Positions 5,246 to 38,600 of a stretch of 54,993 bases of DNA are shown here, in pieces. The position numbers and the translations under genes were made by a program. Below the pieces are notes generated by a model, which was given only the letters and a program-made list of their open reading frames with translations, had not been told where the DNA came from and did no database searches. How positions within the stretch are numbered: the stretch's first letter is position 1; each line of letters opens with the position of its first letter. The DNA lies in IMG/VR virus record IMGVR_UViG_2923302340_000009, positions 1 through 54,993 of that record, one strand, 5' to 3'. Origin of the DNA: a virus. Its lineage: Duplodnaviria > Heunggongvirae > Uroviricota > Caudoviricetes.

Positions 5246-8647
<3,402 letters not shown>

Positions 8648-8704
8648 TCACGCTCCATAAATGACAAAACCGCCCGCAGGCGGTTTCACATAAAACATTT
8701 TGCA

Positions 8705-9376
8705 TCAGCGACCAATCACCACAACCTGACCACCGTCCCCTTCGTCTGCCGTGCTGATCTCCTGAGAAACCACACGTGATCCCACGCGCATTTCACCGTA
8801 CAGAACGGGCAGAACATTGCCCTGGGCAACCATGTTATCCAGTGAGGAGAAATAGGTGTTTTGTTTGCCGTTATCCGTTGTCTGTGTACGGGGAGTTCTG
8901 GCTTTCGGTGCCAGCATCTGGGCCACACCACCGAGCACCATACTGGCACCGAGAGAAAACAGGATGCCGGTCATACCACCGGCCCCAATGGCTGCCCCCC
9001 ACGCTGCAAGGGTGGCTCCGGCAGTAAAGAATGATCCGGCAATGGCGGCTGCTCCCAGGACAATCTGGAATACGCCACCTGACTTGGCCCCGGCGACTCT
9101 GGGAACAATATGAATCACAGCGCCATCAGGCAGAGTCTCATGTAACTGCGCCGTTAACCCGGACGTGCTGACATCCCGCCCGGCAATCCGTACCTGATAC
9201 CAGCCGTCGCTCAGTTTCTGACGAAACGCCGGGAGCTGTGTGGCCAGTGCGCGGATGGCTTCAGCCCCCGTTTTCACACGAAGGTCGATGCGGCGGCCAA
9301 ATCGTTGCAAATCCCCGTAAAGGCAGATGCGCGCCATGCCCGGTGACGCCAGAGGGAGTGTGTGCGTCGCTGCCAT
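8705..9376 (-). CDS. I: tail assembly protein I
   Basis: 223 aa, matches lambda gpI; overlaps K as in lambda. Confidence 0.9.
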   Translation of the reverse strand: MAATHTLPLASPGMARICLYGDLQRFGRRIDLRVKTGAEAIRALATQLPAFRQKLSDGWYQVRIAGRDVSTSGLTAQLHETLPDGAVIHIVPRVAGAKSGGVFQIVLGAAAIAGSFFTAGATLAAWGAAIGAGGMTGILFSLGASMVLGGVAQMLAPKARTPRTQTTDNGKQNTYFSSLDNMVAQGNVLPVLYGEMRVGSRVVSQEISTADEGDGGQVVVIGR

Positions 9377-21104: not shown

Positions 21105-22424
21105 TTACACTGGTGTGTTCAGCAAATCGTTAACGGCATCAGATGCCGGGTTACCTGCAGCCAGCGATGCCGGTGCCCCCTGCATCAGACGATCCAGCGC
21201 AGTGTCACTGCGCGCCTGTGCACTCTGTGGTGCTGCGGCCAGAATGCGGCGGGCCGTTTCCACGGTCATACCGGGGGTTTCTGCCAGCACGCGGGCCTGT
21301 TCTTCGCGTCCGTGAGCCTCCTCACAGTTGAGGATCCCCATAATGCGGCTGTTTTCTGCCGCAACCGCAGCGGTGATCTGCGCGTTCACGTCCGGCTGCG
21401 CCGCGCTGGCGTTTTCGCCCTCCGTCGCTGGCACCACGTCAGTAACGTCAGCCTGCGAAGCAGTGGCTGAAACAGTTGTTGATTGAGTCTCTTTGGTCAT
21501 TCGCCCTCCTGAGAGACGGGATTTACGTGCATCCAGTGCATCACGCATAACGGTGATCGCATCGGTACTGTTAACAAGTTCATCAGCCAGTCCGGCATCA
21601 ATGGCCTCCTGACCGCTGTACACTGCAGCCTCGGTATCCAGCACAGCCTGCACAGACAGGCCGGTATATGCCGACACCTTCTGCGCAAACATCTGGCGGG
21701 TTGCGTCCATCCGGGACTGCAGTGTCTCCCGGACGTCATCCGGAAGATGGCTGTAGGGATTGCCATCCACCTTATGGCTGCCGCTGTAAATCAGCGTGAT
21801 TTCCACGCCCTGTTTCTCCAGCGCAGCACCGTAATTGCTGTGAGCCATCATGACGCCGATGGAGCCTGTCCGGGCGGTCTGCGTGACCAGACGCCGGGAG
21901 GCGGCGCTGGCAAGCAGCTGACCTGCACTGCAGTTCATGTCGTTGGCCAGCGCCCATACCGGTTTTATGTCTCGCACACGGGCGATGATGTCAGCACAGT
22001 CAAATGCTCCCGCCACCATCCCGCCCGGTGTGTCCATATCCAGCAGAATGCCGTCCACCATCGGATCGCTGGCAGCCTGTTGCAGACGGGCGATAATGCC
22101 GTTGTAACCGGTCATCCCCGAGTACGGCTGCAGCGCCCGCGTCCGGCTGACCAGCGTACCGGACACCGGCAGCACGGCGATGCCGTTCATGACCTGATAG
22201 CTGCGGGCCTGTCGTGGTCCGTCATCATCACCGGATATCGCCAGCGCCGCGGGTGCCTCTCCGGCAGTCAGGCTGTCGCCGGATACTGCATCCGTCAGGC
22301 GGCTGATCCCAAGCTGGCCTGCAAGCGCACAAAAGAAAACCCGCGCATAGGCGGGTTCAAGCATCAGCGGCTCATTAAAAGCCATGCTGGCAATATGCGG
22401 GAGATTACGCAGCTCTGCTGTCAC
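21105..22424 (-). CDS. C: head protease/minor capsid protein C (with in-frame scaffold Nu3)
   Basis: Matches lambda gpC from VTAELRNLPHIASMAF (GTG start); overlaps 3' end of B. Confidence 0.9.
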   Translation of the reverse strand: MTAELRNLPHIASMAFNEPLMLEPAYARVFFCALAGQLGISRLTDAVSGDSLTAGEAPAALAISGDDDGPRQARSYQVMNGIAVLPVSGTLVSRTRALQPYSGMTGYNGIIARLQQAASDPMVDGILLDMDTPGGMVAGAFDCADIIARVRDIKPVWALANDMNCSAGQLLASAASRRLVTQTARTGSIGVMMAHSNYGAALEKQGVEITLIYSGSHKVDGNPYSHLPDDVRETLQSRMDATRQMFAQKVSAYTGLSVQAVLDTEAAVYSGQEAIDAGLADELVNSTDAITVMRDALDARKSRLSGGRMTKETQSTTVSATASQADVTDVVPATEGENASAAQPDVNAQITAAVAAENSRIMGILNCEEAHGREEQARVLAETPGMTVETARRILAAAPQSAQARSDTALDRLMQGAPASLAAGNPASDAVNDLLNTPV

Positions 22425-23184
22425 TCTTCTCCTCCTCTGTTGATTGTCGCAGTCCGGATTCAAATGCCGCAGCCGCCCAGGCGGGCGGTTTAAGACCGGC
22501 TGCACGGCGCTCCATCGTTTCACGGACCTGCTGGGCAAAAATTTCCTGATAGTCGTCACCGCGTTTTGCGCACTCTTTCTCGTAGGTGCTCAGTCCGGCT
22601 TCTATCAGCATCACCGCTTCCTGTACTTCTTTCAGACCATCGATGGCCATACGACCGGAGCCTATCCAGTCACAGTTCCCCCAGGCACTGCGGGCTTCCT
22701 GAAAGCTGAAGCGCGCTTTTGAAGGTAACGTCACCACGCGGCGAACGATGGCCTCTTCCAGCCAGCACAGAAACATCTGGCTCGCCTGACGGGATGCGAC
22801 GAATTTTCGCCGCCCCATAAAGTACGCCCACGACTCGTTCGCGCTGGCCCGTGCCGTGGAGTAGCTCATCTGGGCGTAATTCCGGGAAAGCTGCTCATAC
22901 GAGACACCCAGCCCGGCAGCGATATACCGCAGCAGTGACTGCTCAAACACGGAGTAGCCGTTATCCGTATCCTGAGCCGTCTGCAGGTTCAGTGAGTCAC
23001 CCGGCATCAGGTGCGGCACTTTTGCGCCTCCAAGCCGGACCGGCGCTGCGGCGTAATACGCGGCAATTTCACCAATCCAGCCGGTCAGCTTGTCCCGCTG
23101 CTCCTGACTGTTCGCGCCCAGAATAAAATCCATCGCTGACTGCGTATCCAGCTCACTCTCAATGGTGGCGGCATACATCGCCTT
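22405..23184 (-). pseudogene. B: portal protein B, C-terminal segment (codons 277-533) separated from N-terminal segment by the inserted island
   Basis: MYAATIESELDTQSAMDF... to end matches lambda gpB C-terminus; preceding codons KA retained at the junction. Confidence 0.9.
23172..23184. repeat. left copy of 13-bp direct repeat (catacatcgcctt) bounding the island; putative att core
   Basis: Same 13-mer with one mismatch (cataaatcgcctt) at 34071..34083; lambda portal sequence is continuous across one copy. Confidence 0.7.
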
Positions 23185-23256
23185 TATGAAAAGACAGGAA
23201 AAAATAAAATTTAAAAACAGTACATTACGAATGCTCAGACCTATCGTTTAAAGGAG

Positions 23257-23280
23257 TCGCAATACACACTGCAATACACG
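23257..23280. repeat. two tandem copies of GCAATACAC motif near left island end (putative integrase/AlpA arm sites)
   Basis: tcgcaatacacac tgcaatacacg; same motif three times at right end 33894..33947. Confidence 0.5.
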
Positions 23281-23619
23281 ATTATTTATAAGATGAGCGG
23301 CATCCGTCATAAAGCTGGTGGATGCTTTTTCTATGCATATATGCACAGTTTTAGTGGGCGTTAATGTCGATATAGGGATCCCCATATCGAGATTGGATAC
23401 CTGGCTTTTTTCCGGTTAACCTTTAATCAGGCTGGTGGGCTTTACCTGTTTTGTATGAGTGGTCATCATGACCATGTCATAACAAAAACCCCATATTCGT
23501 GGTTTTTCTGTGTCGGGCTATTCTGTCGTTGCTGTGCTGATTTGGCTGGTGGGCTGAATCATCATTACGGCGATGCAGCTATGTAGACGTTCCGGCCTCC
23601 TCAAATTGAGGATTGTGGA

Positions 23620-23980
23620 AGAATCAATGGGTTAGTCTTACTTTCCCGACATCCCCCAATGGGGGTTTTCGAAACAATCAATAGCTTAGGCTTACTTCCC
23701 CGATTTCCTGCATTGCAGGTTTTCGAAATAATCAATGGGTTAGGCCATCGTGCAATTTTGCACTTTGCCAGCCAGCGCAATGTCGCGTTATCAGTCCTCA
23801 GATGTGAGGGATGTAGCCAGCTTTTCCCCCAGTGGGGGATATCCAGCACCGACGGCTTAACTGTGCGTGCCAGCACAAGGTAGCCTTGAACTACTTACTG
23901 CATCCCATCTTACAGGCCGTGCCTTCCTGCTTAACTTTTTGCAATGCAACAAGTCAGCCAGCGCAATTTTGCGTTATCGG
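23620..23980. repeat. array of about 54-bp periodic repeats (aatcaatRgSttagg) each followed by a short GC palindrome and ttttcgaaa
   Basis: Three units starting near 23622, 23676, 23730; palindromes cccccaatggggg, cctgcattgcagg, gtgcaattttgcac, cccccagtggggg; second family cagccagcgcaatNNNgcgttatc twice. Confidence 0.5.
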
Positions 23981-23993
23981 GAATATCAGCAAG

Positions 23994-24275
23994 TTACCGC
24001 CGCAATCGTTCCGGCTTCTTCCACTGGTAAGTATTTTTCGCGCTCTCCCTCCGTTGTTGAGAAAGGCGACGATATGCCAGCAACTCAAGGACTCTTGTTC
24101 GTATGTTGCGCATATCCACGCCGTTAAGCTCAATACCGTCACGGCGCATCACCTCAGCCACTACACGCACATAATTATCTGCGGTCACGCTGTCCGGCTG
24201 CGTGGCCTGTTCGTCATGCTGCTTGCTGATTCCACAAGCACGGCGGATTAATCGCAGTATTTCGGATTCAGTCAT
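23994..24275 (-). CDS. hypothetical protein (island packaging module)
   Basis: 93-aa ORF 11 nt downstream of TerS-like gene; no recognisable family. Confidence 0.45.
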   Translation of the reverse strand: MTESEILRLIRRACGISKQHDEQATQPDSVTADNYVRVVAEVMRRDGIELNGVDMRNIRTRVLELLAYRRLSQQRRESAKNTYQWKKPERLRR

Positions 24276-24286
24276 AGCGTACTACG

Positions 24287-24829
24287 TTACTTATCTTTAT
24301 TCGGCTGCAACTTATCCGGTACGTTTCCGGCAGTTTCCATCAGATAATCGGACAGCATCAGCGGTATGTTTTCGTCAAGTTTTGCGCATGCGTTACAGGC
24401 TCTGATAACTTCTTTTTTCAGTCCATCCAGCATAGACGGCTTCATGTCGGGAAACTTCCTTGTCATGGCAAGCGGCAGGCTGTCCATGATTGAAGAAATC
24501 TGACTCGCCAATTTTGAAAGCACGTATATACAAAACGCTGTATCAATAACGTCGCCGCGTTCGCGCTCGTTTTTAAGCTCCTGCGCCTCTGCCTGTGCTG
24601 TCAGCAATCTGATCCTGACTCGTAGGAGTTCATCATCATCAATCTCGCCTTTGTCGTCTGTAATCTGGTTAATTGCATTGCTAACCCGATTGTCTATTAC
24701 GCTGGCAACATCATAAAACGCCTCGCGGCCTTTACGTTCAACGGGAGTCACTCCCCACTTGTCGAACGCTGTCGCACTTACACGGCAGCTTTGCGCCATG
24801 TTTTTTTTGTTCATCAGGTGCGATTTCAT
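24287..24829 (-). CDS. terminase small subunit-like protein (lambda Nu1 homologue) encoded by the island
   Basis: Aligns with lambda Nu1 core LTRAQADAQELKN...AFCTFVLSRIAGEIASILDGIPL; ATG at 24829 preceded by GGGGA; lies downstream of island cos. Confidence 0.75.
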   Translation of the reverse strand: MKSHLMNKKNMAQSCRVSATAFDKWGVTPVERKGREAFYDVASVIDNRVSNAINQITDDKGEIDDDELLRVRIRLLTAQAEAQELKNERERGDVIDTAFCIYVLSKLASQISSIMDSLPLAMTRKFPDMKPSMLDGLKKEVIRACNACAKLDENIPLMLSDYLMETAGNVPDKLQPNKDK

Positions 24830-24940
24830 CAATATCCCCACTTAAGTAATGTTTCAGGTTGGTGTATTGACTTTATCTTTTCCTTTTTATTCATAGAGAT
24901 AGAGCGAACAACAAAACCACCACCAGCACCCGAAAAAGGC

Positions 24941-25010
24941 TCATAAATAGCGAAAACCCGCGAGGTCGCCGCCCCGTAGCCTACCGGATCACCGGAAAGG
25001 ACCCGCCAGC
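24941..25010 (-). other. island cos site with canonical lambda-type cosN (GGGCGGCGACCT) and lambda-like cosQ-side flank, divergent cosB side
   Basis: Plus strand aaatagcgaaaacccgcg AGGTCGCCGCCC cgtagcctaccggatcaccggaaaggacccgcc (cosN 24963..24974); paralogous to prophage cos at about 37700. Confidence 0.75.
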
Positions 25011-25030
25011 CAGAGCGGGCCCTAATTTCA

Positions 25031-25414
25031 TCAACCAATCAGCTTATAGCGACCATCCCGTGCATTGCGGCGTACACGCTCAATCTTGAGGCATAGCGCC
25101 GCATCTGGCTTTTTTGGGACAGGTACGCGGCAATATTCAGAAGCGCGAGGAATATTATTTATCCAGTCGATCACTTCACTTAAATACCAGGCCTTACGCC
25201 CTTCCGTAACCTGCACACGCTCCGGGAACTCTCCACTAGCCTCAAGGTTTAGCAGTGTACGACGACTCAGGGTTGTAATTTCCATCACCTGATTCATATC
25301 AACAAGGCGCTCGCTTAAACACATTTTGTCAGCGATAGCTTTTAATTCCTCTACAGCTGGATTCGGGTACATCATTTCGGCAATTGGCTTAAGGTCATTG
25401 TAATCATTCTGCAT
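25031..25414 (-). CDS. AlpA-family HTH protein (second copy, in packaging module)
   Basis: Motif ITTLSRRTLLNLEASGEFPERVQVTEGRKAWYLSEVIDWI; strong SD AGGGGGA. Confidence 0.65.
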   Translation of the reverse strand: MQNDYNDLKPIAEMMYPNPAVEELKAIADKMCLSERLVDMNQVMEITTLSRRTLLNLEASGEFPERVQVTEGRKAWYLSEVIDWINNIPRASEYCRVPVPKKPDAALCLKIERVRRNARDGRYKLIG

Positions 25415-25425
25415 TGTATCCCCCT

Positions 25426-25767
25426 TTACACACGAGCCAGCGGCTGAACAGAAATACCTGAGCCAACAAACGCTGCAACCTTTACTGACAGTTCTTTAAC
25501 AGACTCAGGCCAGTTCAGAGCATCAACATTTAAGACACCTGTCTTATAGACCTGAGCCTGTGTTTTTTTCGCGGTGTCGATTTGTACAGCGGAAACATAA
25601 ACCGCTTTACCTACGCTCGAACCATCCCATACCACCAGTGCACCTGTTGCATCTTCCTGCATCAGTGGCGTAAATGCAGGAATTACCCCTTTATTAGCTG
25701 AAAATATCCCCAGCGTAGTCACCAGTGCTTCAGTGCCAGCCATGAGTTCAGTGTAATGAGTAGCCAT
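25426..25767 (-). CDS. head decoration protein, lambda gpD-like (island paralogue)
   Basis: 113 aa alignable to lambda gpD (PAFTPLM...VWDGSS...); SD AGGGGGAG. Confidence 0.75.
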   Translation of the reverse strand: MATHYTELMAGTEALVTTLGIFSANKGVIPAFTPLMQEDATGALVVWDGSSVGKAVYVSAVQIDTAKKTQAQVYKTGVLNVDALNWPESVKELSVKVAAFVGSGISVQPLARV

Positions 25768-25776
25768 TGCTCCCCC

Positions 25777-26823
25777 TTAGCCAATGCGAACGGTAACAAA
25801 ACGATTGATGCGGGCCGGTATTGGCTGTGGTGCTGAATGTGTCTGCACATATTCAATAGCCGGATCACCAGGCACAATATAGTTTTTCGGTGCAAGTTCG
25901 GCTTTAGTCAGCCCCATTCGGATTAGCTCCGGATCCTGAATACCGCCATAGGCGACAATCCCCTGAAGAGCCGTATTGCCAAGCACCATCAAATCAGGAT
26001 CAAGGAAATGTTTTTCTGTTCCGTCCTCGTCGGTATAACGCCCGCTGTAAACAACAATCGCAACATCGCCCATATACCCTTTAAAACTCACCGAATCACC
26101 AAGGTCTTTAAGGGCCGTTTCCAGTTCGGAATTAGAACCACGACGGGTATCCAAAGCCTCTTTTATCGCTCTGAATGAACGGTATTTCTTCCATACATTA
26201 CCACCCATAATGATGATATTAGTGACGCCCTCACTAAATTCTGCGTAGCTCTCAATATCATCATTTGGATCAAAAGTTTCTTTATCCTTACCTGACCACT
26301 CAGTACCGCCAGACTGAGTGATGATATTTTGTGGTTTTATATTCCAGTCCAGCTCATAACGTTCAATACCATCGCCCTCAATGATATTTTTCCCCGTTGT
26401 GATTGCCTGAACAGCAAGCCATTCAATACGTGCACGAATAGCTTTAGCCTGATTTACAATCGCCTGTTTAACTTTAATATTACGCGCCCCAAAAGCATTG
26501 TATTGCTCAGGTGACACACCAGCAGGGCGCACAGCTAACTTATTTGGATCAATGCTGCTTTTCGGCTTCATATAACCTGGACGAATTGTTTTTGATTCGT
26601 ATCCCTCATCTCGTGAAACTTTACTGCCCACCATAGGAGAGCAAAACGCCGCGATCGGGATATTTGGATCGTCGATCGTATCAAGAATAATGTCTCTCGA
26701 TTCAAACATTACCGAGCGAGTGAAAAACAAACTGGTAAACAACGCATTTAATTTTTTTTGCACATCTTCAGCATTAGCCACCTGCACAAGCTGTGTAGGC
26801 GAATATAAATCAACCATACTCAT
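25777..26823 (-). CDS. major capsid protein, lambda gpE-like (island paralogue)
   Basis: Roughly half identity to lambda gpE by eye across C-terminal two-thirds (QSGGTEW...LDTRRGSNSELETA...VAIVVYSG); start at MSMVDLYS with SD AAGAGGA. Confidence 0.8.
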   Translation of the reverse strand: MSMVDLYSPTQLVQVANAEDVQKKLNALFTSLFFTRSVMFESRDIILDTIDDPNIPIAAFCSPMVGSKVSRDEGYESKTIRPGYMKPKSSIDPNKLAVRPAGVSPEQYNAFGARNIKVKQAIVNQAKAIRARIEWLAVQAITTGKNIIEGDGIERYELDWNIKPQNIITQSGGTEWSGKDKETFDPNDDIESYAEFSEGVTNIIIMGGNVWKKYRSFRAIKEALDTRRGSNSELETALKDLGDSVSFKGYMGDVAIVVYSGRYTDEDGTEKHFLDPDLMVLGNTALQGIVAYGGIQDPELIRMGLTKAELAPKNYIVPGDPAIEYVQTHSAPQPIPARINRFVTVRIG

Positions 26824-26988
26824 CCTCTTTACATTCATTACAAATAATTGTGAATATATTCTATTACCGATGTCTGCTATGCGAACACATGCAACCAAGT
26901 GCAATGTTGTATAAAATATGCCGTAACAACTTCAGTGCTGATAATTCGTGTTAATGTATTTACTTCCTTTGGTCGGGATTTATGTAGC

Positions 26989-27028
26989 ATGCCGGAAAAT
27001 CTATTTTTTTCCGGCATCTTTTTGTTTG
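26989..27028 (+). terminator. plus-strand hairpin with T-tract between island ssb and capsid genes
   Basis: atgccggaaa / tttccggcat 10-bp stem followed by ctttttgtttg on plus strand; both neighbouring genes are on minus strand. Confidence 0.35.
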
Positions 27029-27034
27029 CAGAAT

Positions 27035-27457
27035 TTAAAACGGTATATTATCGCCGTACGGATCATCATTCCCCGACTGTTGTTTTGCCCTGTTCAGTGC
27101 GTCAGTGGCCTGCCCCTGCTGGCCTTTTTTGCCGCCCGGTCGCGCCGTTCGCGCACTGATTACGCTGTCTGCGATAACCTGCCAGCCCCGCCGCGTTTCG
27201 CCGTTCTGGCCTGTCCACTGGCTTACCTGCATGTTACCCGCCACGCTCACCAGTTCGCCTTTGTGGTGTTTTGCCAGTGCGTCGGCCTGTCTGCCAAACG
27301 CCAGGACGGATAACCACATCGTCGCCGTTCCGTCATCTGCCTGGCTGCACGGCAGGGGAACCGCCATACTCGCCATCGCCATTTGTGTCCCTTTGCTGGT
27401 GGTCTTTAACTGCGGGTCAGCCACCAGCCGCCCGTAAGCCGCTATCTGTGCTGTCAT
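27035..27457 (-). CDS. ssb: single-stranded DNA-binding protein (SSB-like)
   Basis: 140 aa with Gly/Gln-rich linker and acidic C-terminal tail DDPYGDNIPF typical of SSB. Confidence 0.75.
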   Translation of the reverse strand: MTAQIAAYGRLVADPQLKTTSKGTQMAMASMAVPLPCSQADDGTATMWLSVLAFGRQADALAKHHKGELVSVAGNMQVSQWTGQNGETRRGWQVIADSVISARTARPGGKKGQQGQATDALNRAKQQSGNDDPYGDNIPF

Positions 27458-27768
27458 GCTGTCTGCTCTCCGGTTTTAACATTGATGGTTGTCACCTGTT
27501 CCGCTTCGGCAATCTCCCGTTCTGTCAGCGTGGCAAAGTTTGCCGCTGCTGTGGTCATAAATGCGCTTATCAGGTCGGGATGTTCCTTCGCGTATCCTGC
27601 CCGTGTGTGGTGGTCTATCGCTTTGATTGCCACCTTTAAGGAAAGCTCTGTCATGTCTAACGCTTTATATTTTGCCTGTGTTCTGTCTCTGCGAATTTTG
27701 GTCATTTGTCGCCCCTGATTCATGTTTTCGGCTGGCATGTTTGTTAAGTGATTTTTATGTATGCGCAT
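27454..27768 (-). CDS. hypothetical protein translationally coupled to ssb
   Basis: 104-aa ORF; stop overlaps ssb ATG (ATGA). Confidence 0.45.
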   Translation of the reverse strand: MRIHKNHLTNMPAENMNQGRQMTKIRRDRTQAKYKALDMTELSLKVAIKAIDHHTRAGYAKEHPDLISAFMTTAAANFATLTEREIAEAEQVTTINVKTGEQTA

Positions 27769-27819
27769 TTATTTTCACCCCCCCTCGTTTAAAAAGTTTT
27801 TAGTTGTGCCTCCCCCCCT

Positions 27820-28045
27820 CTACCCATCTACCCGAATGCTCATCATGTCAGTAATGGCGCCGCTTTCAGCGGGTAGATAGCTTTTTTGACTCCTCTACCT
27901 GCCGTCTACCCTGCTACCTGAAACTGATAAAATCAGGTAGAAGAGGTAGAGAGCTTTTATTAGCCTTCTACCTAGCCCTATATCCACTTATCATGTTGAA
28001 TAATATGCATTTATTTCGTTCAGGTAGATGGGGTAGATGGCTTTT
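27820..28045. repeat. iteron cluster (GGTAGA / TCTACC motifs, about 12 copies in both orientations); putative island replication origin
   Basis: ctctaccc, atctaccc, gggtagat, aggtagaagaggtagag, ggtagatggggtagatgg immediately upstream of primase gene. Confidence 0.7.
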
Positions 28046-28053
28046 ACAAAAAA

Positions 28054-29808
28054 TTATAAAAACGCGTCGCAATCGTCTGTTGTAATTGCGTTGGTCTGCG
28101 TTACTCCCTTAACTTTTCGCGTAATATATTCATGCCCGTAAACTTTCGCCGCTGGCTTCATGGCCTTGCTGAACTCAGCCACGTTTAGCGGTTTGCTCCT
28201 GCCCGCGTATGCCATAAACGCCAGATAGACGCGGTAAAGGCTGTTCCTGGTCGTGTACTTCACTGAATCACCACCGCCACCCATCATCAGGCCGCGCGCT
28301 TCCTCCAGAAAATTCAGGAACTGGCAAAACTCAATAACCGGATCCGTCTGTTGCTTTATTGCCAGTGCTTCATCACCGTCACGCTGTTCCAGTAGTAAAG
28401 CCCGTGCCTTCTCAGGGTCGGTAAAGTTCGCCAGCAATCGGCGGATAATAACGGGGATTTCAGCCGCAATCTTTTCCGGTAGCTCCCTGTCTTTTTCGGC
28501 CTCACTGACGATATTGTCGAAACGGAAAATCACGCGACGACGTGCCACACCTCCGGCCCGTTCGGTGAATATCATCGGGTTGTTGTTGGTCGCCAGCACC
28601 ACCGCCCTGATTACCGCCGTGAAACGCTTTTCATATTTCGGGTTAATTTCCACGGGGTCGCCGCCTGTGATTTTCTTGATGCCCGTTCCTTCGCCTGTAT
28701 ATTTCGGCTGGTCAGCCAGGACGATAAGACGACTCCCGACAACCTGCGCACGTCCACCAGCATCATCAAGCGATGTCATTTCAGCGCTTACCGTGTTCTG
28801 TTTCCCTGCCAGAAGGCTGGCTATGTGTGTGAATGTACTTTTACCGCTCCCGCCGTCTCCGGTGGCCTCAATAAACATCTGCCAGTCGTACCGGTTCGCC
28901 ATAATCATGTACAGCGCGGCACATATACGCATCATCTTGCGCGGGTCTTTTCCGGCTGCGTGCTCAAGCCATTTATGAAAGTTTGGCGCGTTATCGCGGA
29001 TGTTCTCCCCTGGTGCTGGTGGCGTGTACTCAATGCCGTTGTGCGTGGTGATCCAGTTCTCCGGCGTGTGCGGGGAAAATTCCCCCGTTTTCAGGTCAAG
29101 CGCACCATTGGCGAACGGCAGCAAATCGCCAGACGGCTCGCCCATTGGTTCGGCAATAACTTTTAACGCTTCCACGGCGTTATTGATTACGCGCTTGCTG
29201 AAAGTGGCCCTGTGCTCTGAATAGATCGCCACCATTTCGCGGCTAAGTTCCATTGTGCTGACCGGACACCATACCCCGCCGCGCCATACGTGAACGATTT
29301 CACTTTCAGGATGTACGCAAACGCCATCAAAGCGATCGGCAAGCAACTGCGCGCGCTCACTGTCCGCCATCTGCGAAAGTTGCGCCTTTTGCTTTACCGG
29401 AAGCTCAATGACCAGACCATCAGAAAGATTCTGGCGTTCACGGGCCAGATATTCGCGCCAGGTCTGCACCTCCTGGCCGTGCATACCCTCAGGATAAAAA
29501 TTTGCATCCTGTACGCCTGCTGCCGCCAGCTTCTGACCAATCGCCTTTATCATTACAGGCGCAAGATATCCGGCCCTGTATATGCGTGCTGATTTTCGGC
29601 CTTCCGGCACAATTTGCAGATTATCCAGTTCGGATAGCTGCTGCTCCCCAAGCCACACAGGAGGCTCATTATCTCCGGCCATACGCGCATCATGTTCCTG
29701 CCATTGTTTCGCGTGTGCCCAGGCATCACTACCCGCAAAAATAATTACTTCTGTTCCTTTGTGTTTTATGCCGCGTGACTGCTGTTTTACGTTCGGTGCC
29801 AGTTTCAT
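28054..29808 (-). CDS. primase-helicase (P4 alpha-like replication protein with P-loop NTPase domain)
   Basis: 584 aa; Walker A GDGGSGKST; adjacent iterons; translationally coupled to upstream ORF. Confidence 0.75.
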   Translation of the reverse strand: MKLAPNVKQQSRGIKHKGTEVIIFAGSDAWAHAKQWQEHDARMAGDNEPPVWLGEQQLSELDNLQIVPEGRKSARIYRAGYLAPVMIKAIGQKLAAAGVQDANFYPEGMHGQEVQTWREYLARERQNLSDGLVIELPVKQKAQLSQMADSERAQLLADRFDGVCVHPESEIVHVWRGGVWCPVSTMELSREMVAIYSEHRATFSKRVINNAVEALKVIAEPMGEPSGDLLPFANGALDLKTGEFSPHTPENWITTHNGIEYTPPAPGENIRDNAPNFHKWLEHAAGKDPRKMMRICAALYMIMANRYDWQMFIEATGDGGSGKSTFTHIASLLAGKQNTVSAEMTSLDDAGGRAQVVGSRLIVLADQPKYTGEGTGIKKITGGDPVEINPKYEKRFTAVIRAVVLATNNNPMIFTERAGGVARRRVIFRFDNIVSEAEKDRELPEKIAAEIPVIIRRLLANFTDPEKARALLLEQRDGDEALAIKQQTDPVIEFCQFLNFLEEARGLMMGGGGDSVKYTTRNSLYRVYLAFMAYAGRSKPLNVAEFSKAMKPAAKVYGHEYITRKVKGVTQTNAITTDDCDAFL

Positions 29809-30104
29809 TTTTTACCTCTGAATCCGTTAATCATGGTTTTCATTTTCTGGATATTTCCCCACGCTTTTTCCCTGCTGATGGGCTTACTGCGGGGTGCGGC
29901 ATATACCAGGGAAAAATCACGCCGGAACTGATAAACAGGCATCACGCAGTCATAGCTATACCCCTCACGGCGGTAAGTGATGCGCCGTTCTGCCACGCCT
30001 TTAATCGTTACCGTGCCGCCGTATTTATCGCGGTAAATATCGCCGTTCATAAATTCAGGTCGAGCGGGGCCGCTGGCAATAAAGCCAGAATTTTTCATTT
30101 CCAT
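29805..30104 (-). CDS. hypothetical protein
   Basis: 99-aa ORF whose stop overlaps primase start. Confidence 0.45.
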   Translation of the reverse strand: MEMKNSGFIASGPARPEFMNGDIYRDKYGGTVTIKGVAERRITYRREGYSYDCVMPVYQFRRDFSLVYAAPRSKPISREKAWGNIQKMKTMINGFRGKK

Positions 30105-30121
30105 ATTATTTATTCCTCGAC

Positions 30122-30343
30122 TTAACTCGACTTATTTGATAGCAGGGCACTATTTATTGCGTCATTGAGTTTTTCTGCTGATTCATCAATAAGTGACAAC
30201 AGGCCATAAGCAATATTTGCATCTTCATTGTCATTTATGCAATCAAGCCACATATTTAATATTGCTTTTGCTGAATTATTTAAAGTTAATGAACTTTCTG
30301 CACATGCTAACAATTTAAAAAAGACTTCCCGTTCTGTATTCAT
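30122..30343 (-). CDS. hypothetical small protein
   Basis: 73-aa ORF in tightly packed three-gene array. Confidence 0.4.
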   Translation of the reverse strand: MNTEREVFFKLLACAESSLTLNNSAKAILNMWLDCINDNEDANIAYGLLSLIDESAEKLNDAINSALLSNKSS

Positions 30344-30535
30344 TTAATCCCCCACCAGCTTACTTTCTTCCTCAATCAAAAAACTAGCGACACTTCCCGA
30401 AAGACGCGCCAGTAGGCTCGCCAGTGCGGATATATCAGCATCTGTAATTTTGTTCGGGTATACCTCAAGAAGGCGGCAAATAATTTCTGTCTGGTGCGCA
30501 CGTTCAGCGGCTTCGTGTAATGTAATTTCCTGCAT
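30344..30535 (-). CDS. hypothetical small protein
   Basis: 63-aa ORF abutting neighbours. Confidence 0.4.
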   Translation of the reverse strand: MQEITLHEAAERAHQTEIICRLLEVYPNKITDADISALASLLARLSGSVASFLIEEESKLVGD

Positions 30536-30720
30536 TAATGCACCTCTTTTAATTCATACACTGCTGAAATAATGACTTGTGATAAGCCATATTCTGATGA
30601 TTCGCTTCTCACCGCAGCAATAGCCGTCTGAACATTAACAGCCTTCACATTCTGAGCGATACCAATTGTGTGGCCTATTGGGTTAACAGCTCGGGCAAAT
30701 ACACGGAAGGTTTTAAGCAT
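30535..30720 (-). CDS. hypothetical small protein
   Basis: 61-aa ORF with SD GGGAG; first gene of minus-strand array. Confidence 0.4.
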   Translation of the reverse strand: MLKTFRVFARAVNPIGHTIGIAQNVKAVNVQTAIAAVRSESSEYGLSQVIISAVYELKEVH

Positions 30721-31001
30721 GACTCACTCCCTGGCGGATTTTTGCAGCGAATACAGCAACACAACCGGACGGGCAACGGCTACGCGCTTCGCGTTCCGTC
30801 CAGGCGGTTACGTGGATGATTTGAGATTCTCCGGCACTCAGTGCCAGAAAACGCCACACAAAGGCCGTTTGTGTGTGTACAAGGTGTGGTATATGATTTA
30901 CAGCAACCATAACGGCTCCTAGTTTACGTTGTTGGTTAGACGCCCCGTATGTGTTCCCAGCACTGCGGGGCGTTGCTCTTTGTATTTCAACAATCCTTTC
31001 G

Positions 31002-31034
31002 GTGTGTTTCATGTTATGAGCGCATGAAACACAC
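31002..31034. promoter_or_regulatory. 12-bp perfect inverted repeat (gtgtgtttcatg N9 catgaaacacac) in divergent intergenic region; putative operator
   Basis: Lies between minus-strand small-gene array and plus-strand gene at 31101; half-site gaaacacac recurs at about 31071. Confidence 0.5.
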
Positions 31035-31100
31035 GTCAAGGCTTTTTGTATTTCTTTTTTTGTGTATACTGAAACACACCGATGATTAGGAGTTTCAGAA

Positions 31101-31406
31101 ATGGCAACGGCTAACAAAAACGCAAAATCACAACTGACAACTGTCAGAGTCCCACTAGATGTTATGCAAGGGATGGAATCCGTTAAGCTGGACGGTGAAA
31201 GCAATGCCGGATTTATCGTAACCGCCATGCGCGGAGAAATAGCCCGCCGCCAAGCAGAAGGCAGCGGAGAAAATCCCCTTGTGTCGTCACTGGATGCCCT
31301 GGCTAAGGTCGAACAAATCGGCATCAAAGCAGCCGAGGAGATCGGGCAACTCGTCACCGTCGCGCGTGAAGAACTCCAGCGACGCAAGGTCAAAGAGCAT
31401 GAATAG
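31101..31406 (+). CDS. hypothetical protein, candidate island regulator
   Basis: 101-aa ORF with SD AGGAG; divergent from small-gene array; downstream of operator-like repeats. Confidence 0.5.
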   Translation: MATANKNAKSQLTTVRVPLDVMQGMESVKLDGESNAGFIVTAMRGEIARRQAEGSGENPLVSSLDALAKVEQIGIKAAEEIGQLVTVAREELQRRKVKEHE

Positions 31407-31463
31407 CCAATATCAGCGCCATAGTTTGAGGAACGCAGGCGCATTGCTTTACAGGACAGCACC

Positions 31464-31643
31464 ATGAGCGACACAGAATCAACCAAAACACCATCACCAA
31501 CTCGTAAGAGACGACGCAAAAATATAGCGCATGAACATGAATCAGAAAGATTCGCACCTTGTTCGTTTGCTCTTGAGAAATTCCTTAAAGAGCACAGGAA
31601 AAAGCTCTCGTTGCAAACCTTGGAACGAACCAAATCTGACTGA
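31464..31643 (+). CDS. hypothetical small basic protein
   Basis: 59-aa ORF (not in track, below 60 aa) MSDTESTKTPSPTRKRRRKN...; followed by terminator. Confidence 0.3.
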   Translation: MSDTESTKTPSPTRKRRRKNIAHEHESERFAPCSFALEKFLKEHRKKLSLQTLERTKSD

Positions 31644-31709
31644 TCACATTGCCCACCAGCCGCAAATGTGGCATTGTTGGTGATGCTTTTGTTTTCCCTT
31701 GTTCCCACT

Positions 31710-31740
31710 GGCGACCCTTTTGCGGTCGCCTTTGTTTTGT
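31710..31740 (+). terminator. rho-independent terminator for plus-strand island genes
   Basis: ggcgacc-cttttgc-ggtcgcc hairpin followed by TTTGTTTTGT. Confidence 0.55.
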
Positions 31741-32318
31741 CACTGAATGCGGTTACCAAAGTAAAACTCAGGCTGATATTCACGTATCAGCGTTTTTTCT
31801 TCTTCCTCCAGCTCACGCTTTTTGCGCTTACATGCCTGTAGCTCCCTCCCCTTCTCGCTGGCACTTATTTGATATTGCTCTTTACGGCGGGAAAAATCCT
31901 GTAATGCACCCCACGGGATACCATAAGTCCCCGTTTTTCTGATACCTGGTATCACATTTCTGAATACCCAGTTACTGAAACGATGAGCAAATGTGCCAGG
32001 CGTCGTTGCTTTGCGGCTGCGGGCTATTAGTTTGTAGAAACCTGACTCAGAGATAATTCTCATATTCTGATTTCCTCCTGGGGTGTAAGTTAAATTTACT
32101 CCCTTTTCATCATCATCAAGCATCTGCAACGCCGTACGCGAATTGGTTAGTTCCAGCGCAGCACAAACATCTTTTGCAACAAACCACGGATCGCCGTTCA
32201 GATACACCACACGAACGTTCACACTATCAAAGCGCAGAACGACGAGATCACGAATATCGCAGAATTTTTTCACTGGACGAGCGTACCCCTTGCCCGTCAC
32301 GGCAATATTTTTATTCAT
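31740..32318 (-). CDS. BRO-N domain protein (antirepressor-like)
   Basis: N-terminal VVLRFDSVNVRVVYLNGDPWFVAKDVCAALEL resembles Bro-N/KilA-N family. Confidence 0.65.
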   Translation of the reverse strand: MNKNIAVTGKGYARPVKKFCDIRDLVVLRFDSVNVRVVYLNGDPWFVAKDVCAALELTNSRTALQMLDDDEKGVNLTYTPGGNQNMRIISESGFYKLIARSRKATTPGTFAHRFSNWVFRNVIPGIRKTGTYGIPWGALQDFSRRKEQYQISASEKGRELQACKRKKRELEEEEKTLIREYQPEFYFGNRIQ

Positions 32319-32334
32319 CGCGTTTTTACCTTAT

Positions 32335-32361
32335 AGACAAAAAACCCCTCGTGATGAGGGG
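32335..32361 (-). terminator. rho-independent terminator downstream of alpA
   Basis: On minus strand cccctcatcacgagggg followed by TTTTTTGTC. Confidence 0.55.
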
Positions 32362-32374
32362 CATTATTTACTGG

Positions 32375-32632
32375 TTATTGCTGTTTTGTTTTTCCAGGTT
32401 TCCATCCAGGATGCCACTCACCACGGATCCATGCCTGAACCTCTGAAAGTCGATACCCTGCAGCACGTTCACCGATCTTGATACGTCGCGGGAATTTACC
32501 TGCCTGCTCCATTTTCCAGCGTGTTGAGTTTGCCAGCGTGGTAAGTGCTATGCACTCTTTTTCACGAATGAACCGATCAATGTCCTTCATTGTGCGCAAA
32601 TCGTTTTCATCAACAAGAGAATAAATTGCCAT
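32375..32632 (-). CDS. alpA: AlpA-family transcriptional regulator/excisionase-like protein
   Basis: 85 aa; ...FPRRIKIGERAAGYRLSEVQAWI motif; immediately downstream of integrase. Confidence 0.75.
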   Translation of the reverse strand: MAIYSLVDENDLRTMKDIDRFIREKECIALTTLANSTRWKMEQAGKFPRRIKIGERAAGYRLSEVQAWIRGEWHPGWKPGKTKQQ

Positions 32633-32633
32633 A

Positions 32634-33875
32634 TCACACCACCTCTTTATTAAGCTCGATAACGTTGTTGTTAAATCCTGCTATCGTATTAAGGTAATTA
32701 ACCCACATATTAAGCACCTCAAGTTTTTTCTTTATATGCCTGCTTTTATTGTAAACACCAGCAACCCCTTTCACTTTATGACCTAAAAGAAGTTCGACAA
32801 TATAAGGATCCGCCCCCATATCATTAAGCGTAGTGGAAAATGTGCGCCTGAAATCATGTATGCACCACAAGCCATTAGTATCATGACCAAGACGCCTGCA
32901 TATTCTGTTTGCAGCCCCTGTTATTGTCGCCCTTTGCAAAGCACAACCGACAACATAACCGCGATTTTTTGTTTCTGCGTAAAGATTAACGATCCATTGT
33001 TTTATTCCGTCAGGAACAGGCCTTACTATAGCCTCCTTGTTTTTGCTGTGCTCTTTTGGGACTGTCCATACCCAGTTTTTTAAATCCCATTCGTCCCAGG
33101 TGGATAGCCTCGCCTCCTGCTGTCGGCAACCAAACACCAGGCAGATAACCATTATTCTTCGGTTATATATTGATGACAGAGTTAGCAAATTATTACCGTA
33201 AGCATAAGACCATACATCAGCGGTTTCATTGATATTAAGAACGCGATCCCTTATACCGGATGAGCGCCCGACATAACTTACGTTAATATCTCCAAAGGGA
33301 TCGCACGCGATGTATTGCCTGACGCGACAAAAACGCAACGCCTGTTTGATATCAAGAAAAATTGCACCAGACATAACAGGCGCATTTTTTTTGATCCTGT
33401 CAAAGACGGTAAGCCATGTGTGTAATTTGCACTGTTCTATAGCCATATCACCGATATAGGGGAAGATATGCTTTTCAAATCGTTTTATTAAATATTCATG
33501 CTCTTTTCTGGCTGTTGTGGCGTGATTGTCGTACCAGTAAAACAGCGCATCCCTTACGGTCACTGGTTGCATAGTTTTTTCGGCAGCAAGTTTTATTTGC
33601 CTGCGGGGGTCCAGATTTTCAGCCAGCCATTCACGGCACTGATCACGCATGCGCCTGGCCGTTGCAAGAGACATGTCAGGATAGCGACCAAGTGTAAGCC
33701 ATACCGGAGGGAATTCCCTGCCACCAAGACGATAGTAAAAAACAAAGCTGATCCCCCCAACCATGCTTACACGCACAGACAACCCGCGCCCATCCGCTAT
33801 TGTTTTTTGTTTGTCCTGCCGTTTTCCGACAAGACTCTTTAACAGTTTGTCACTGAGTTTGTTTTCAATAGCCAT
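32634..33875 (-). CDS. int: P4-type tyrosine integrase
   Basis: 413 aa; P4-like N-terminal arm-binding region and C-terminal HDFRRTF...LLGH...Y catalytic region; adjacent to island end. Confidence 0.85.
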   Translation of the reverse strand: MAIENKLSDKLLKSLVGKRQDKQKTIADGRGLSVRVSMVGGISFVFYYRLGGREFPPVWLTLGRYPDMSLATARRMRDQCREWLAENLDPRRQIKLAAEKTMQPVTVRDALFYWYDNHATTARKEHEYLIKRFEKHIFPYIGDMAIEQCKLHTWLTVFDRIKKNAPVMSGAIFLDIKQALRFCRVRQYIACDPFGDINVSYVGRSSGIRDRVLNINETADVWSYAYGNNLLTLSSIYNRRIMVICLVFGCRQQEARLSTWDEWDLKNWVWTVPKEHSKNKEAIVRPVPDGIKQWIVNLYAETKNRGYVVGCALQRATITGAANRICRRLGHDTNGLWCIHDFRRTFSTTLNDMGADPYIVELLLGHKVKGVAGVYNKSRHIKKKLEVLNMWVNYLNTIAGFNNNVIELNKEVV

Positions 33876-33893
33876 TAAAAGCCCTCAAGAGAT

Positions 33894-33947
33894 TTGCAAT
33901 ACACACCCATCCCGATCGCCAATTTGCAATACACATTGCAATACACA
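33894..33947. repeat. three direct copies of TTGCAATACACA next to integrase start (putative arm-type binding sites)
   Basis: Copies at about 33894, 33924, 33936; same motif at left island end. Confidence 0.55.
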
Positions 33948-34023
33948 AAACCGCGAAAAACTGGAAGGGTGATGAACGGTCATCAAAAGCATGGAAAACG
34001 ACATTCCAGACGCAGCAAGGGTT

Positions 34024-37004
<2,981 letters not shown>

Positions 37005-37030
<26 letters not shown>

Positions 37031-37550
37031 TCAGCAACCCCGGTATCAGTTCATCCAGCGCGGCTGCTTTGTTCATGGCTTTGATGATATCCCGTTTCAG
37101 GAAATCAACATGTCGGTTTTCCAGTTCCGGAAAACGCCGCTGCACCGACAGGGGGATCCCGTCGAGAATACTGGCAATTTCACCTGCGATCCGCGACAGC
37201 ACGAAAGTACAGAATGCAGTTTCCACCACTTCAGCGGAGTCTCTGGCATTTTTCAGCTCCTGTGCGTCGGCCTGCGCACGCGTAAGTCGATGGCGTTCGT
37301 ACTCAATAGTCCCTGGCTGGAGATCTGCCTCGCTGGCCTGTCGCAGTTCTTCAACCTCCCGGCGCAGCTTTTCGTTCTCAATTTCAGCATCCCTTTCGGC
37401 ATACCATTTTATGACGGCGGCAGAGTCATAAAGCACCTCATTACCCTTCCCACCGCCTCGCAGAACGGGCATTCCCTGCTCCTGCCAGTTCTGAATGGTA
37501 CGGATACTCGCGCCGAAAATGTCAGCCAGCTGCTTTTTGTTGACTTCCAT
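37005..37550 (-). CDS. nu1: terminase small subunit Nu1
   Basis: 181 aa, matches lambda Nu1 (MEVNKKQLADIFGASIRTIQNW...). Confidence 0.96.
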
Positions 37551-37699
37551 TGTTCATTCCACGGACAAAAACAGAGAAAGGAAACGACAGAGGCCAAAAA
37601 GCCCGTTTTCAGCACCTGTCGCTTCCTTTCTTTTCAGGGGGTATTTTAAATAAAAACATTAAGTTACGGCGAAGAAGAACGGAAACGCCTTAAACCGGA

Positions 37700-37760
37700 A
37701 AATTTTCATAAATAGCGAAAACCCGCGCGCCTTCCGCCCCGTAGCCTGCCGGATCGCCGG
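37700..37760 (-). other. prophage cos region with variant cosN (GGGCGGAAGGCG instead of GGGCGGCGACCT)
   Basis: Flanks match lambda cosQ and cosB sides; 12-nt cosN at about 37728..37739 differs from lambda at 5 positions as I recall it. Confidence 0.6.
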
Positions 37761-38174
37761 AAAGGACCCGCCAGCCATTCGGGTTTACTTCACAATGGGA
37801 TTTAATATCTGAACGACCAAAGTCGTGCGGCCACGGTCGCACAGACCTGAATACACGTCCTGTTTCTTCCACCCCCGCACAGGACTGGCGAGCATGAGGG
37901 ACAAACCCGCGAATCATAAACGCGGTAAAAACCCGGTGTGCATCGTTTTTGATTATTCCCGCACACTCGCGCAGAAGGAATTCCCCGTCGGGCTACGGTC
38001 ATGGTTAATGCGGGAATACGGCGACGATACAGCGCATAATGTGTCAGGCTTGAATACCTTTATCGAATCCCGGTAACGAATTCTCCTGACGTTCCAGTCA
38101 GGTGATGATATGCATGGTGAGATTCAGATATGAAAAAGCCCCGCTAAAAGCGAGGCCATAAATCACTTAATATC

Positions 38175-38600
38175 TTATTGAGGACGCTGGAGTAATCCGT
38201 GCTGAGCGAGAGTTAGAGCAATGTCATAAGACCCTTGCCTGTCTTTATAGCAAGTTTTATCAACTAGCTCAGCTTTGCTAATTCCGGGTAAATCAAGAAT
38301 CAGATTCGCAACTTCAATTGCCCTTTGGTACAACTTACCGATCTTTTTCTCCCCATGATGTGGTTTTACATTCTTCAGATAACCGCTATCCGCCAGAGCG
38401 AGAAACGTTGCCCTTGGGCATCCCTTCTTTCTTGCCGATTCGCTTTCTGTAACCTCAGCGACAGCAGCATCCCATGCATCACGCGGGGATATTGAATTAT
38501 CAGCAACCAAATAATAAGCAATTAAAGCGGCGCGCGCGTATTGAGACATAATGCATCCATATACAAAAATCTTATGATAAGACTTTTCTAATATGAACAC
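38175..38600 (-). CDS. hypothetical protein between Rz and cos (moron position)
   Basis: 141-aa ORF; likely starts at internal Met (MSQYARAAL...); no family recognised. Confidence 0.45.

Follow-up and report, generated by a model that had tools for sequence, protein, structure and literature searches.

We analyzed the divergent regulatory region at positions 30122-31643 of the IMG/VR virus record IMGVR_UViG_2923302340_000009 (Caudoviricetes), whose whole stretch of 54,993 nucleotides (nt) is referred to as the window. The region belongs to a helper-embedded Gram-negative phage-inducible chromosomal island (PICI) related to EcCICFT073, an island type and an embedding that were already known. 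We consider it somewhat better than an even chance that this early-control region is a two-promoter switch of the phage P4 type, in which a protein repressor would replace the immunity RNA. A preliminary description of the same DNA had proposed a divergent regulatory module of a satellite island, and this view was supported, with a 101-amino-acid (aa) protein as the best repressor candidate. Judged from the sequence, this protein is most likely the local repressor of the island, and the repeats next to its gene are candidate operators; the assignment is based on a predicted ribbon-helix-helix (RHH) domain, the placement of boxes on both promoters, and the co-variation of the boxes with the recognition strand of the protein. 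The elements concerned are the following, where RBS is the ribosome-binding site and ORF an open reading frame:

31101-31406, plus strand, 101-aa protein of the YlcI/YnfO family, candidate island repressor
31070-31082, predicted operator box 4, TGAAACACACCGA, between the -10 element and the RBS of the 101-aa gene
31065-31070, plus strand, predicted -10 element (TATACT) of the rightward promoter of the 101-aa gene
31046-31054, predicted operator box 3, TTGTATTTC, degenerate here, with a good copy in related loci
31023-31035, predicted operator box 2, CATGAAACACACG, inverted partner of box 1, abutting the leftward -35 element
30999-31011, predicted operator box 1, TCGGTGTGTTTCA, overlapping the -10/start region of the leftward promoter
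31039-31011, minus strand, predicted leftward promoter P_left, with TTGACG (31039-31034), 17 nt, and TAACAT (31016-31011), which would drive the operon from the Icd-like gene to the primase gene
30940-30973, minus strand, conserved leader hairpin between P_left and the start of the Icd-like gene
30713-30910, minus strand, 65-aa Icd/Kil-like gene (NCBIfam NF033153, E 1.2e-17; RefSeq annotation)
30713-31786, minus strand, eta-like open frame (the 356-aa ORF is 30713-31783), antisense to a 59-aa gene and the 101-aa gene

The 101-aa protein matched the NCBIfam model NF041551 (YlcI_YnfO_N) over residues 9-50 with 63.3 bits against a cutoff of 30, in agreement with its RefSeq name, and 216 homologues of approximately 101 aa were spread over Enterobacterales. 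AlphaFold models (pLDDT of 81 overall and 89 for the N-domain) had an extended N-terminal segment, helices at residues 19-28 and 35-54, and a long helix at residues 59-100. This succession of a strand and two helices is that of an RHH protein, and an RHH N-domain is predicted at residues ~10-54. The best compact structural matches were RHH antitoxins. The Pfam family PSK_trans_fac was matched by 20 of 27 family members (best E 0.0011), and hhalign gave E 0.004 to Arc and 0.06 to Mnt. The C-terminal part had a weak helix-hairpin-helix-like match to Hef (E 0.0047), while a sequence search of the protein against solved structures returned no significant link. The RHH fold is likely on the basis of the models, with support that is moderate and short of proof. 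Substitutions among homologues of the gene concentrate at codon position 3 (e.g., 16/17/42), which indicates purifying selection. Among the island genes, only the 101-aa gene and the 59-aa ORF that follows it are oriented against all others.

The perfect inverted repeat of the preliminary description, GTGTGTTTCATG-N9-CATGAAACACAC, was located at 31002-31034, and no match was obtained in 100 shuffles of the window even with up to three mismatches. A third copy, TGAAACACACCGA at 31070-82, is complementary to 30999-31011 at 13 of 13 positions. The third half-site reported earlier exists, but a fourth box (31046-54) pairs with it, giving four boxes and not three. The 11-mer GGTGTGTTTCA with at most one mismatch was found six times in the window versus 1.0 expected, and three of the six copies fall inside the 80-bp stretch that holds these repeats. 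Boxes 1 and 2 bracket P_left, and boxes 3 and 4 form a pair around the -10 element of the 101-aa gene itself. In the alignment of 17 loci, the intergenic scaffold consists of a GTCAAG block, a T-run, and TGTATA(A/C)T, with the four variable boxes inside; the GTCAAG columns are nearly invariant, and the -10 element of the repressor gene reads TATAAT in Xenorhabdus and Photorhabdus. The rightward TATACT was not called by a consensus promoter scan, and this conservation across loci is a better argument for the predicted promoters than the weak scan calls.

The boxes resemble each other more within a locus than between loci, with a mean best 9-mer match of 7.69/9 versus 6.44/9 (p = 2e-13). The box sequence tracks residues 10-18 of the 101-aa protein, which presumably form the strand that reads the DNA and vary more than any other part of the family, in the following combinations:

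SQLTTVRVP with box GTGTGTTTCA (E. coli, Xenorhabdus, Photorhabdus)
SQSLTARIP with box GTGTAAGnnC
SKQISIRIP with box TGTGATTC
SQQLNARFP with box TGGTATTCA
SQQINARFP with box TGGGATTCA
SQxKNxRIP with box GTGTGTATTTA
SQALKARVP with box GTGGCCCAC

The 356-aa ORF covering the region had been set aside as an antisense artefact, a view that was not supported: its last 65 aa are the Icd/Kil-family gene, the frame upstream is open in most related loci, and the nesting is P4-like. Beginning at the 3' end of the Bro-N gene, the frame passes antisense over the 59- and 101-aa genes, crosses the operators and the leader, and continues into the Icd-like gene, which starts at an internal ATG of the 356-aa ORF with its own RBS (GGAG) ahead. 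The Icd-like frame is open upstream in phase in 14 of 19 loci, extending over 285-473 codons in 13 of them and 268 codons in L025, an E. coli O157:H7 element (Rafaela_II). In three other loci (L002, L003, and L020), an antisense frame stays open for 237-418 codons and stops directly at the start of the Icd-like gene, and an open antisense frame is retained in 17 of the 19 loci overall. The intergenic lengths of the in-phase loci were 181, 190, 193, 199, and 208 nt, with the phase kept in all, and most loci have an in-frame ATG within ~10 nt of the stop of the upstream alpA/Bro-like gene. In dinucleotide shuffles, the operator/leader segment was open with a probability of 0.008-0.034 and the segment past the RHH gene with one of 0-0.2, and the other two frames contained 1-21 stops per segment. 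Synonymous shuffling of the repressor gene is a weak test of the open frame, and the non-coding segments are the informative ones. From these comparisons, the 356-aa frame is probably not an artefact and seems to be held open by selection.

At ~3140-3360 of L025, an unannotated 57-aa Arc-like RHH gene (MSTPLEKRSPPYQMRLPEDF...) occupies the repressor slot and has its own palindromic sites (CATGGTAATTACC, twice). Despite this different embedded RHH gene, the antisense frame of L025 is open from the alpA stop, and the Icd-like gene is present. RefSeq annotates this eta-like frame of L025 as a truncated Icd-like pseudogene. In the window, the third codon positions of the 101- and 59-aa genes (31101-31643) coincide with those of the minus-strand frame (31786-30713), which is the phasing that constrains two overlapping frames least.

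The leader hairpin is also conserved. In total, 85.5% of its cells were paired versus 25-43% in slid controls, none of 500 shuffles reached the observed values, and six pairs carry compensatory double changes. The segment 30911-30983 of the leader, hairpin included, is 97.3% identical ahead of the Icd-like gene in O157:H7 elements; L025 is the one such element read, and its repressor differs. In Rfam searches, neither C4/CI RNA nor isrK/seqA was found in the window, even with E up to 5 (and at the gathering score for the whole window), and these elements were likewise not found in EcCICFT073 or L025, while both C4 and isrK were detected in P4 as a positive control. RNA immunity in the style of P4 or P1 was rejected on this result.

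In P4, the eta frame (8168-8812) starts over the vis stop. Kil, which makes up the last 65 aa of eta, matches the Icd-like model NF033153 with E 1.4e-20 (eta residues 161-208). The family model was needed to link the two proteins: the old P4 'cI' coding sequence (CDS) gave nothing in BLASTP with the Icd-like protein, and tblastn of the latter against phage genomes gave one match only. As in P4, the 65-aa Icd/Kil-family gene is the first after the proximal promoter and lies nested in the terminal part of a long frame that, as read from the sequence, starts beside an alpA/vis homologue; a D5/alpha-type primase gene follows downstream, and the layout has two entry points into one operon. In P4, translation of eta occurs solely from the late promoter upstream and prevents termination (PMC10111431). 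P4 differs in having the C4/CI and isrK/seqA RNAs, whereas immunity here would, by analogy, be provided by an opposite-strand protein encoded inside the eta-like frame and acting on DNA operators at the promoters. The P4 record (L024, 8168-8584, CDS P4p10) retains the old annotation 'cI gene product (AA 1-137), transcriptional repressor' over the eta/kil frame. The PHROG label 'transcriptional repressor' on Icd-like families was probably inherited from P4p10 and is untrustworthy.

The candidate repressor also has counterparts in phage P22, in which Mnt and Arc of immI are small RHH repressors that act on a divergent, closely spaced promoter pair. Mnt comprises an RHH domain and a C-terminal helical tetramerisation domain, and its specificity resides in the N-terminal strand. 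The likeness extends to a small RHH repressor at divergent promoters with an antirepressor-family gene nearby. In contrast to Mnt/Arc, to which the 101-aa protein has no significant sequence relationship, the operator sequence is different, there are four boxes, and the gene is embedded antisense in another frame.

In the proposed switch, the 101-aa RHH protein would occupy the four boxes of ~10 bp, placed about two helical turns apart, probably as a dimer of dimers or a tetramer held together by the long C-terminal helix of the model. Occupation of boxes 1 and 2 would keep the Icd/Kil-like gene, the 61-, 63-, and 73-aa genes, the 99-aa DUF4222 gene, and the primase gene all off, and occupation of boxes 3 and 4 would let the protein limit its own synthesis. 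Induction would come from upstream, through AlpA induced by the helper or helper late transcription entering the island. Transcripts from upstream would be translated along the eta-like frame and, by analogy with P4, be protected from Rho-dependent termination; this read-through would cross the repressor gene in antisense direction and extend into the replication genes independently of the repressor. We infer this bypass from the P4 analogy and the published AlpA data, and the anti-polarity role of long-frame translation would follow from the same analogy.

In published work on EcCICFT073, the alpA homologue is the activator of the island cycle, overexpression of AlpA alone triggers island replication, the presence of a global repressor in Gram-negative PICIs is termed 'unclear', and the inducing signal of the helper is described as unidentified (PMC6092414). 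The accounts of Fillol-Salom 2018 and Tommasini 2023 treat AlpA as the activator and describe Bro and RNA immunity zones, with the 101-aa protein and the operators unmentioned. EcCICFT073 has the same gene order as the window (int, alpA, a Bro remnant, YlcI/YnfO, Icd-like, small genes, DUF4222, primase, single-stranded DNA-binding protein (SSB), capsid, and decoration). Its YlcI/YnfO copy (L023, 10474-10653) differs in being 59 aa long without the long C-terminal helix; the RHH domain is joined straight to the last residues, and the boxes are GTGGCCCAC in direct repeats. From its sequence, this 59-aa protein may be a crippled repressor, in the very strain behind the 'no repressor' view. Induction of EcCICFT073 by AlpA alone is compatible with the proposed switch, and that island, with its 59-aa RHH protein, may be atypical.

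A broader proposal is advanced tentatively, at less than even probability: the master repressor of Gram-negative PICIs would be an RHH protein that behaves like a cassette and switches its specificity rapidly, with its gene lying antisense within a translated eta-like frame, and activation would occur by translated read-through from alpA or helper late transcription, which would bypass the repressed promoter and collide with the repressor gene without any antirepressor.

Several results weigh against the proposed switch. The Pfam and hhalign matches of the 101-aa protein to RHH families are all sub-threshold, and Foldseek with both of its models gave no significant matches. The consensus promoter scan found three promoters versus 4.1 expected, which is not above chance, and the rightward promoter is without a good -35 element. 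The eta-like frame has no convincing start or RBS in the window, where the candidates are GTG 31783, TTG 31759, and GTG 31708 and the Bro stop is at 31740. L007 and L011 have no open antisense frame, synonymous shuffles of the RHH gene leave the frame open with P 0.16-0.8, and the GC skew gave no clear C-rich, G-poor signature of a Rho-loading site. Since the RHH protein of EcCICFT073 is without the C-terminal helix, the published AlpA results obtained with that island are not simply transferable.

The same anatomy can be read in other ways. SaPIs (Staphylococcus aureus pathogenicity islands) are controlled by Stl, a helix-turn-helix (HTH) protein, whereas an RHH protein is predicted here. An Stl-like master repressor lifted by a helper-phage protein, with the 356-aa frame as a meaningless antisense ORF, would agree with a repressor gene that diverges from the replication operon and has boxes on the promoters, in the same functional slot as SaPI Stl and Rpr of Gram-positive PICIs, and with the nearby Bro-N gene of an 'antirepressor' family; the long C-terminal helix of the model could serve as the partner-binding surface. 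We consider this arrangement unlikely, since conservation of the open frame extends over different loci and persists through a repressor swap, the frame mirrors P4 eta/kil, no helper partner is known, and AlpA alone induces the EcCICFT073 cycle (PMC6092414). Moreover, int is not on the repressor side and is not co-transcribed with the repressor as in SaPIs; here the opposite strand carries int, alpA, and Bro, which converge on the repressor gene. Read-through bypass fits both the anatomy and the published AlpA data better than SaPI-style derepression by a helper protein. The long frame could also be a functionless shadow ORF with translation limited to the 65-aa Icd-like gene, in keeping with the shuffles of the RHH gene (open in 16-80%), the two loci without the frame, and the lack of a clear start codon in the window; its family matches are limited to the C-terminal 65 aa, and the upstream 290 aa match no protein family. 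We likewise consider this possibility unlikely because the operator/leader and downstream segments are open at P <= 0.03 in most loci while the other frames are stop-rich, and because the frame survives the exchange of the embedded repressor gene in L025, ends exactly at the Icd-like start in three loci, and has a precedent in P4 eta/kil.

A reading that concerns the protein itself is that it is an antitoxin-like or autoregulatory RHH accessory that pairs with the Icd/Kil-like product or the 59-aa ORF and has no control over the life cycle. The structural matches to RHH antitoxins, the weak PSK_trans_fac matches, and the small ORF next in the same operon are in its favor, and P4 Kil is described as cell-killing (PMC10111431). 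Yet many loci with the RHH gene lack the 59-aa ORF, and the Icd-like gene is divergent and thus in a different operon; an antitoxin together with a recognisable toxin in one operon, as in type II toxin-antitoxin systems, was not found. As boxes 1 and 2 lie on the promoter of the whole replication operon and EcCICFT073 retains the Icd-like gene beside an RHH protein without the C-terminal helix, we regard such an accessory role as improbable. It is less probable still that the boxes are replication iterons or serve as sites for AlpA, for integrase, or for a host factor. Boxes of ~10 bp that recur about every two turns upstream of replication genes would fit iterons too, but the primases of EcCICFT073 and the window are 97.6% identical, yet their boxes and recognition strands differ, which indicates that the boxes are not primase iterons; the boxes track the variable strand of the RHH protein, and the origin of these islands lies downstream of pri according to published work.

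The leftward operon that P_left would drive was described earlier as an array of three abutting minus-strand ORFs (61, 63, and 73 aa). These ORFs all exist and abut, but a fourth gene, the 65-aa Icd-like gene, had been overlooked; it is annotated in RefSeq for E. coli EC93, which has an identical copy. The Icd-like gene is the first gene of the operon, and it faces the 101-aa gene, unlike the 61-aa ORF. The two plus-strand ORFs of 101 aa (31101-31406) and 59 aa (31464-31643) were present as described. The genes around the switch are as follows:

30535-30720, minus strand, 61-aa gene (PHROG 3672, E 9e-46, full length; RefSeq CDS)
30344-30535, minus strand, 63-aa gene (PHROG 1478, E 2.5e-34)
30122-30343, minus strand, 73-aa gene (PHROG 2196, E 1e-28; homologue in L014)
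31464-31643, plus strand, 59-aa basic ORF 3' of the 101-aa gene (PHROG 21027, E 5e-15)
31710-31738, plus strand, terminator-like hairpin with a T-run that ends the rightward transcript; the minus-strand reading of the hairpin is without a T-run
31740-32318, minus strand, Bro-N (antirepressor-family) gene upstream of the eta-like frame (Pfam Bro-N, E 4.9e-20; PHROG 2593)
32375-32632, minus strand, alpA (Pfam Phage_AlpA, E 5.4e-14)

The Icd-like, 61-, 63-, and 73-aa ORFs abut or overlap (by 8 nt at the Icd-like stop and the 61-aa gene), and they are followed, after a gap of 17 nt, by the genes for DUF4222 and the primase, with a 4-nt overlap between these two. All of the small ORFs belong to conserved PHROG families, with E 1e-28 to 9e-46 for each leftward gene from Icd-like to primase, and several of the leftward small genes recur at the equivalent place in distant loci; homologues of the 63-aa gene, for example, are found there in L007-L009 and EcCICFT073. 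A lack of conservation of the small ORFs, which would have counted against the preliminary description, was thus not observed. The 59-aa ORF is probably coding, with weak support from the sequence: copies 68-83% identical are present in L016, L018, L019, and EcCICFT073, a further homologue occurs in L025, and it is annotated in CFT073, whereas its position-3 bias is weak. It is absent from L002-L013, many of which retain the RHH gene, and no toxin-family match was found for it in Pfam and NCBIfam searches.

The island spans ~10.8 kb at about 23.2-34.0 kb (window 23188-34071). On the minus strand, the order is int, alpA, Bro-N, the Icd-like operon ending in the D5-type primase, SSB, capsid, decoration, HTH, and terS. 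The remaining features of the island and its flanks are the following:

25777-26817, lambda-E-like capsid gene
25426-25767, decoration gene
25031-25414, HTH gene
24287-24829, terS
22405-23178 and 34024-34905, halves of a portal gene flanking the island (portal pseudogene of the lambdoid prophage)

The helper-embedded configuration, in which a PICI lies in a late gene of a prophage, has been reported by Tommasini et al. 2023 (PMC10111431). In the window, int, alpA, and primase are co-oriented, and the island lies within, and in the same orientation as, one of the prophage's late genes, and the prophage terminase and portal genes share the island's strand. A doubled TGTATTGC arm-type motif was reported for the attP sites of helper-embedded PICIs (PMC10111431), and a doubled TGTATTGC motif was found near both ends of the island: GCAATACACA, the reverse of TGTATTGC, occurs at 23255-68 and three times in 33892-33947, next to int. 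A synteny of int, alpA, (cargo), an RHH gene facing Icd-like, small genes, DUF4222, and a replication gene (primase or RepA-like helicase) extends from E. coli to Xenorhabdus and Serratia. In the E. coli contigs L014 and L015, a related island that differs in recognition strand and boxes adjoins a Phage_cap_E fragment and a decoration gene, which indicates that it is embedded in the major capsid gene of the helper, the published E:Phage_cap_E site.

At the far end of the island, 23592-23753 contains three tandem 54-nt units in a gene-free stretch; each unit has a short palindrome of its own ahead of a conserved TTTTCGAAAnAATCAATGGGTTAGGCTTAC-like part, and these units could be a packaging or replication site. 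A YlcI protein of the helper was considered as a partner and rejected, as ylcI is next to nohD in EC93 and not at that place in the window. The window differs from EC93 at 37550-38200, to the right of a Nu1-like gene, and no YlcI-like ORF was found there.

Gram-negative PICIs are widespread and mobilise virulence and defence genes, and the module matches about one quarter of complete E. coli genomes. The conserved RHH protein with its co-evolving operators, present in EcCICFT073 as well, is a cheaply testable candidate for the missing Gram-negative PICI repressor, and the variable recognition strands with their matching boxes provide orthogonal repressor/operator pairs ready-made by nature. 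Through the conserved eta-like frame, PICI control is connected with the translation-dependent antitermination of P4, and this would be a rare case of two overlapping antisense frames that both matter. If the proposal is true, a sense/antisense pair of functional reading frames would act as a genetic switch.

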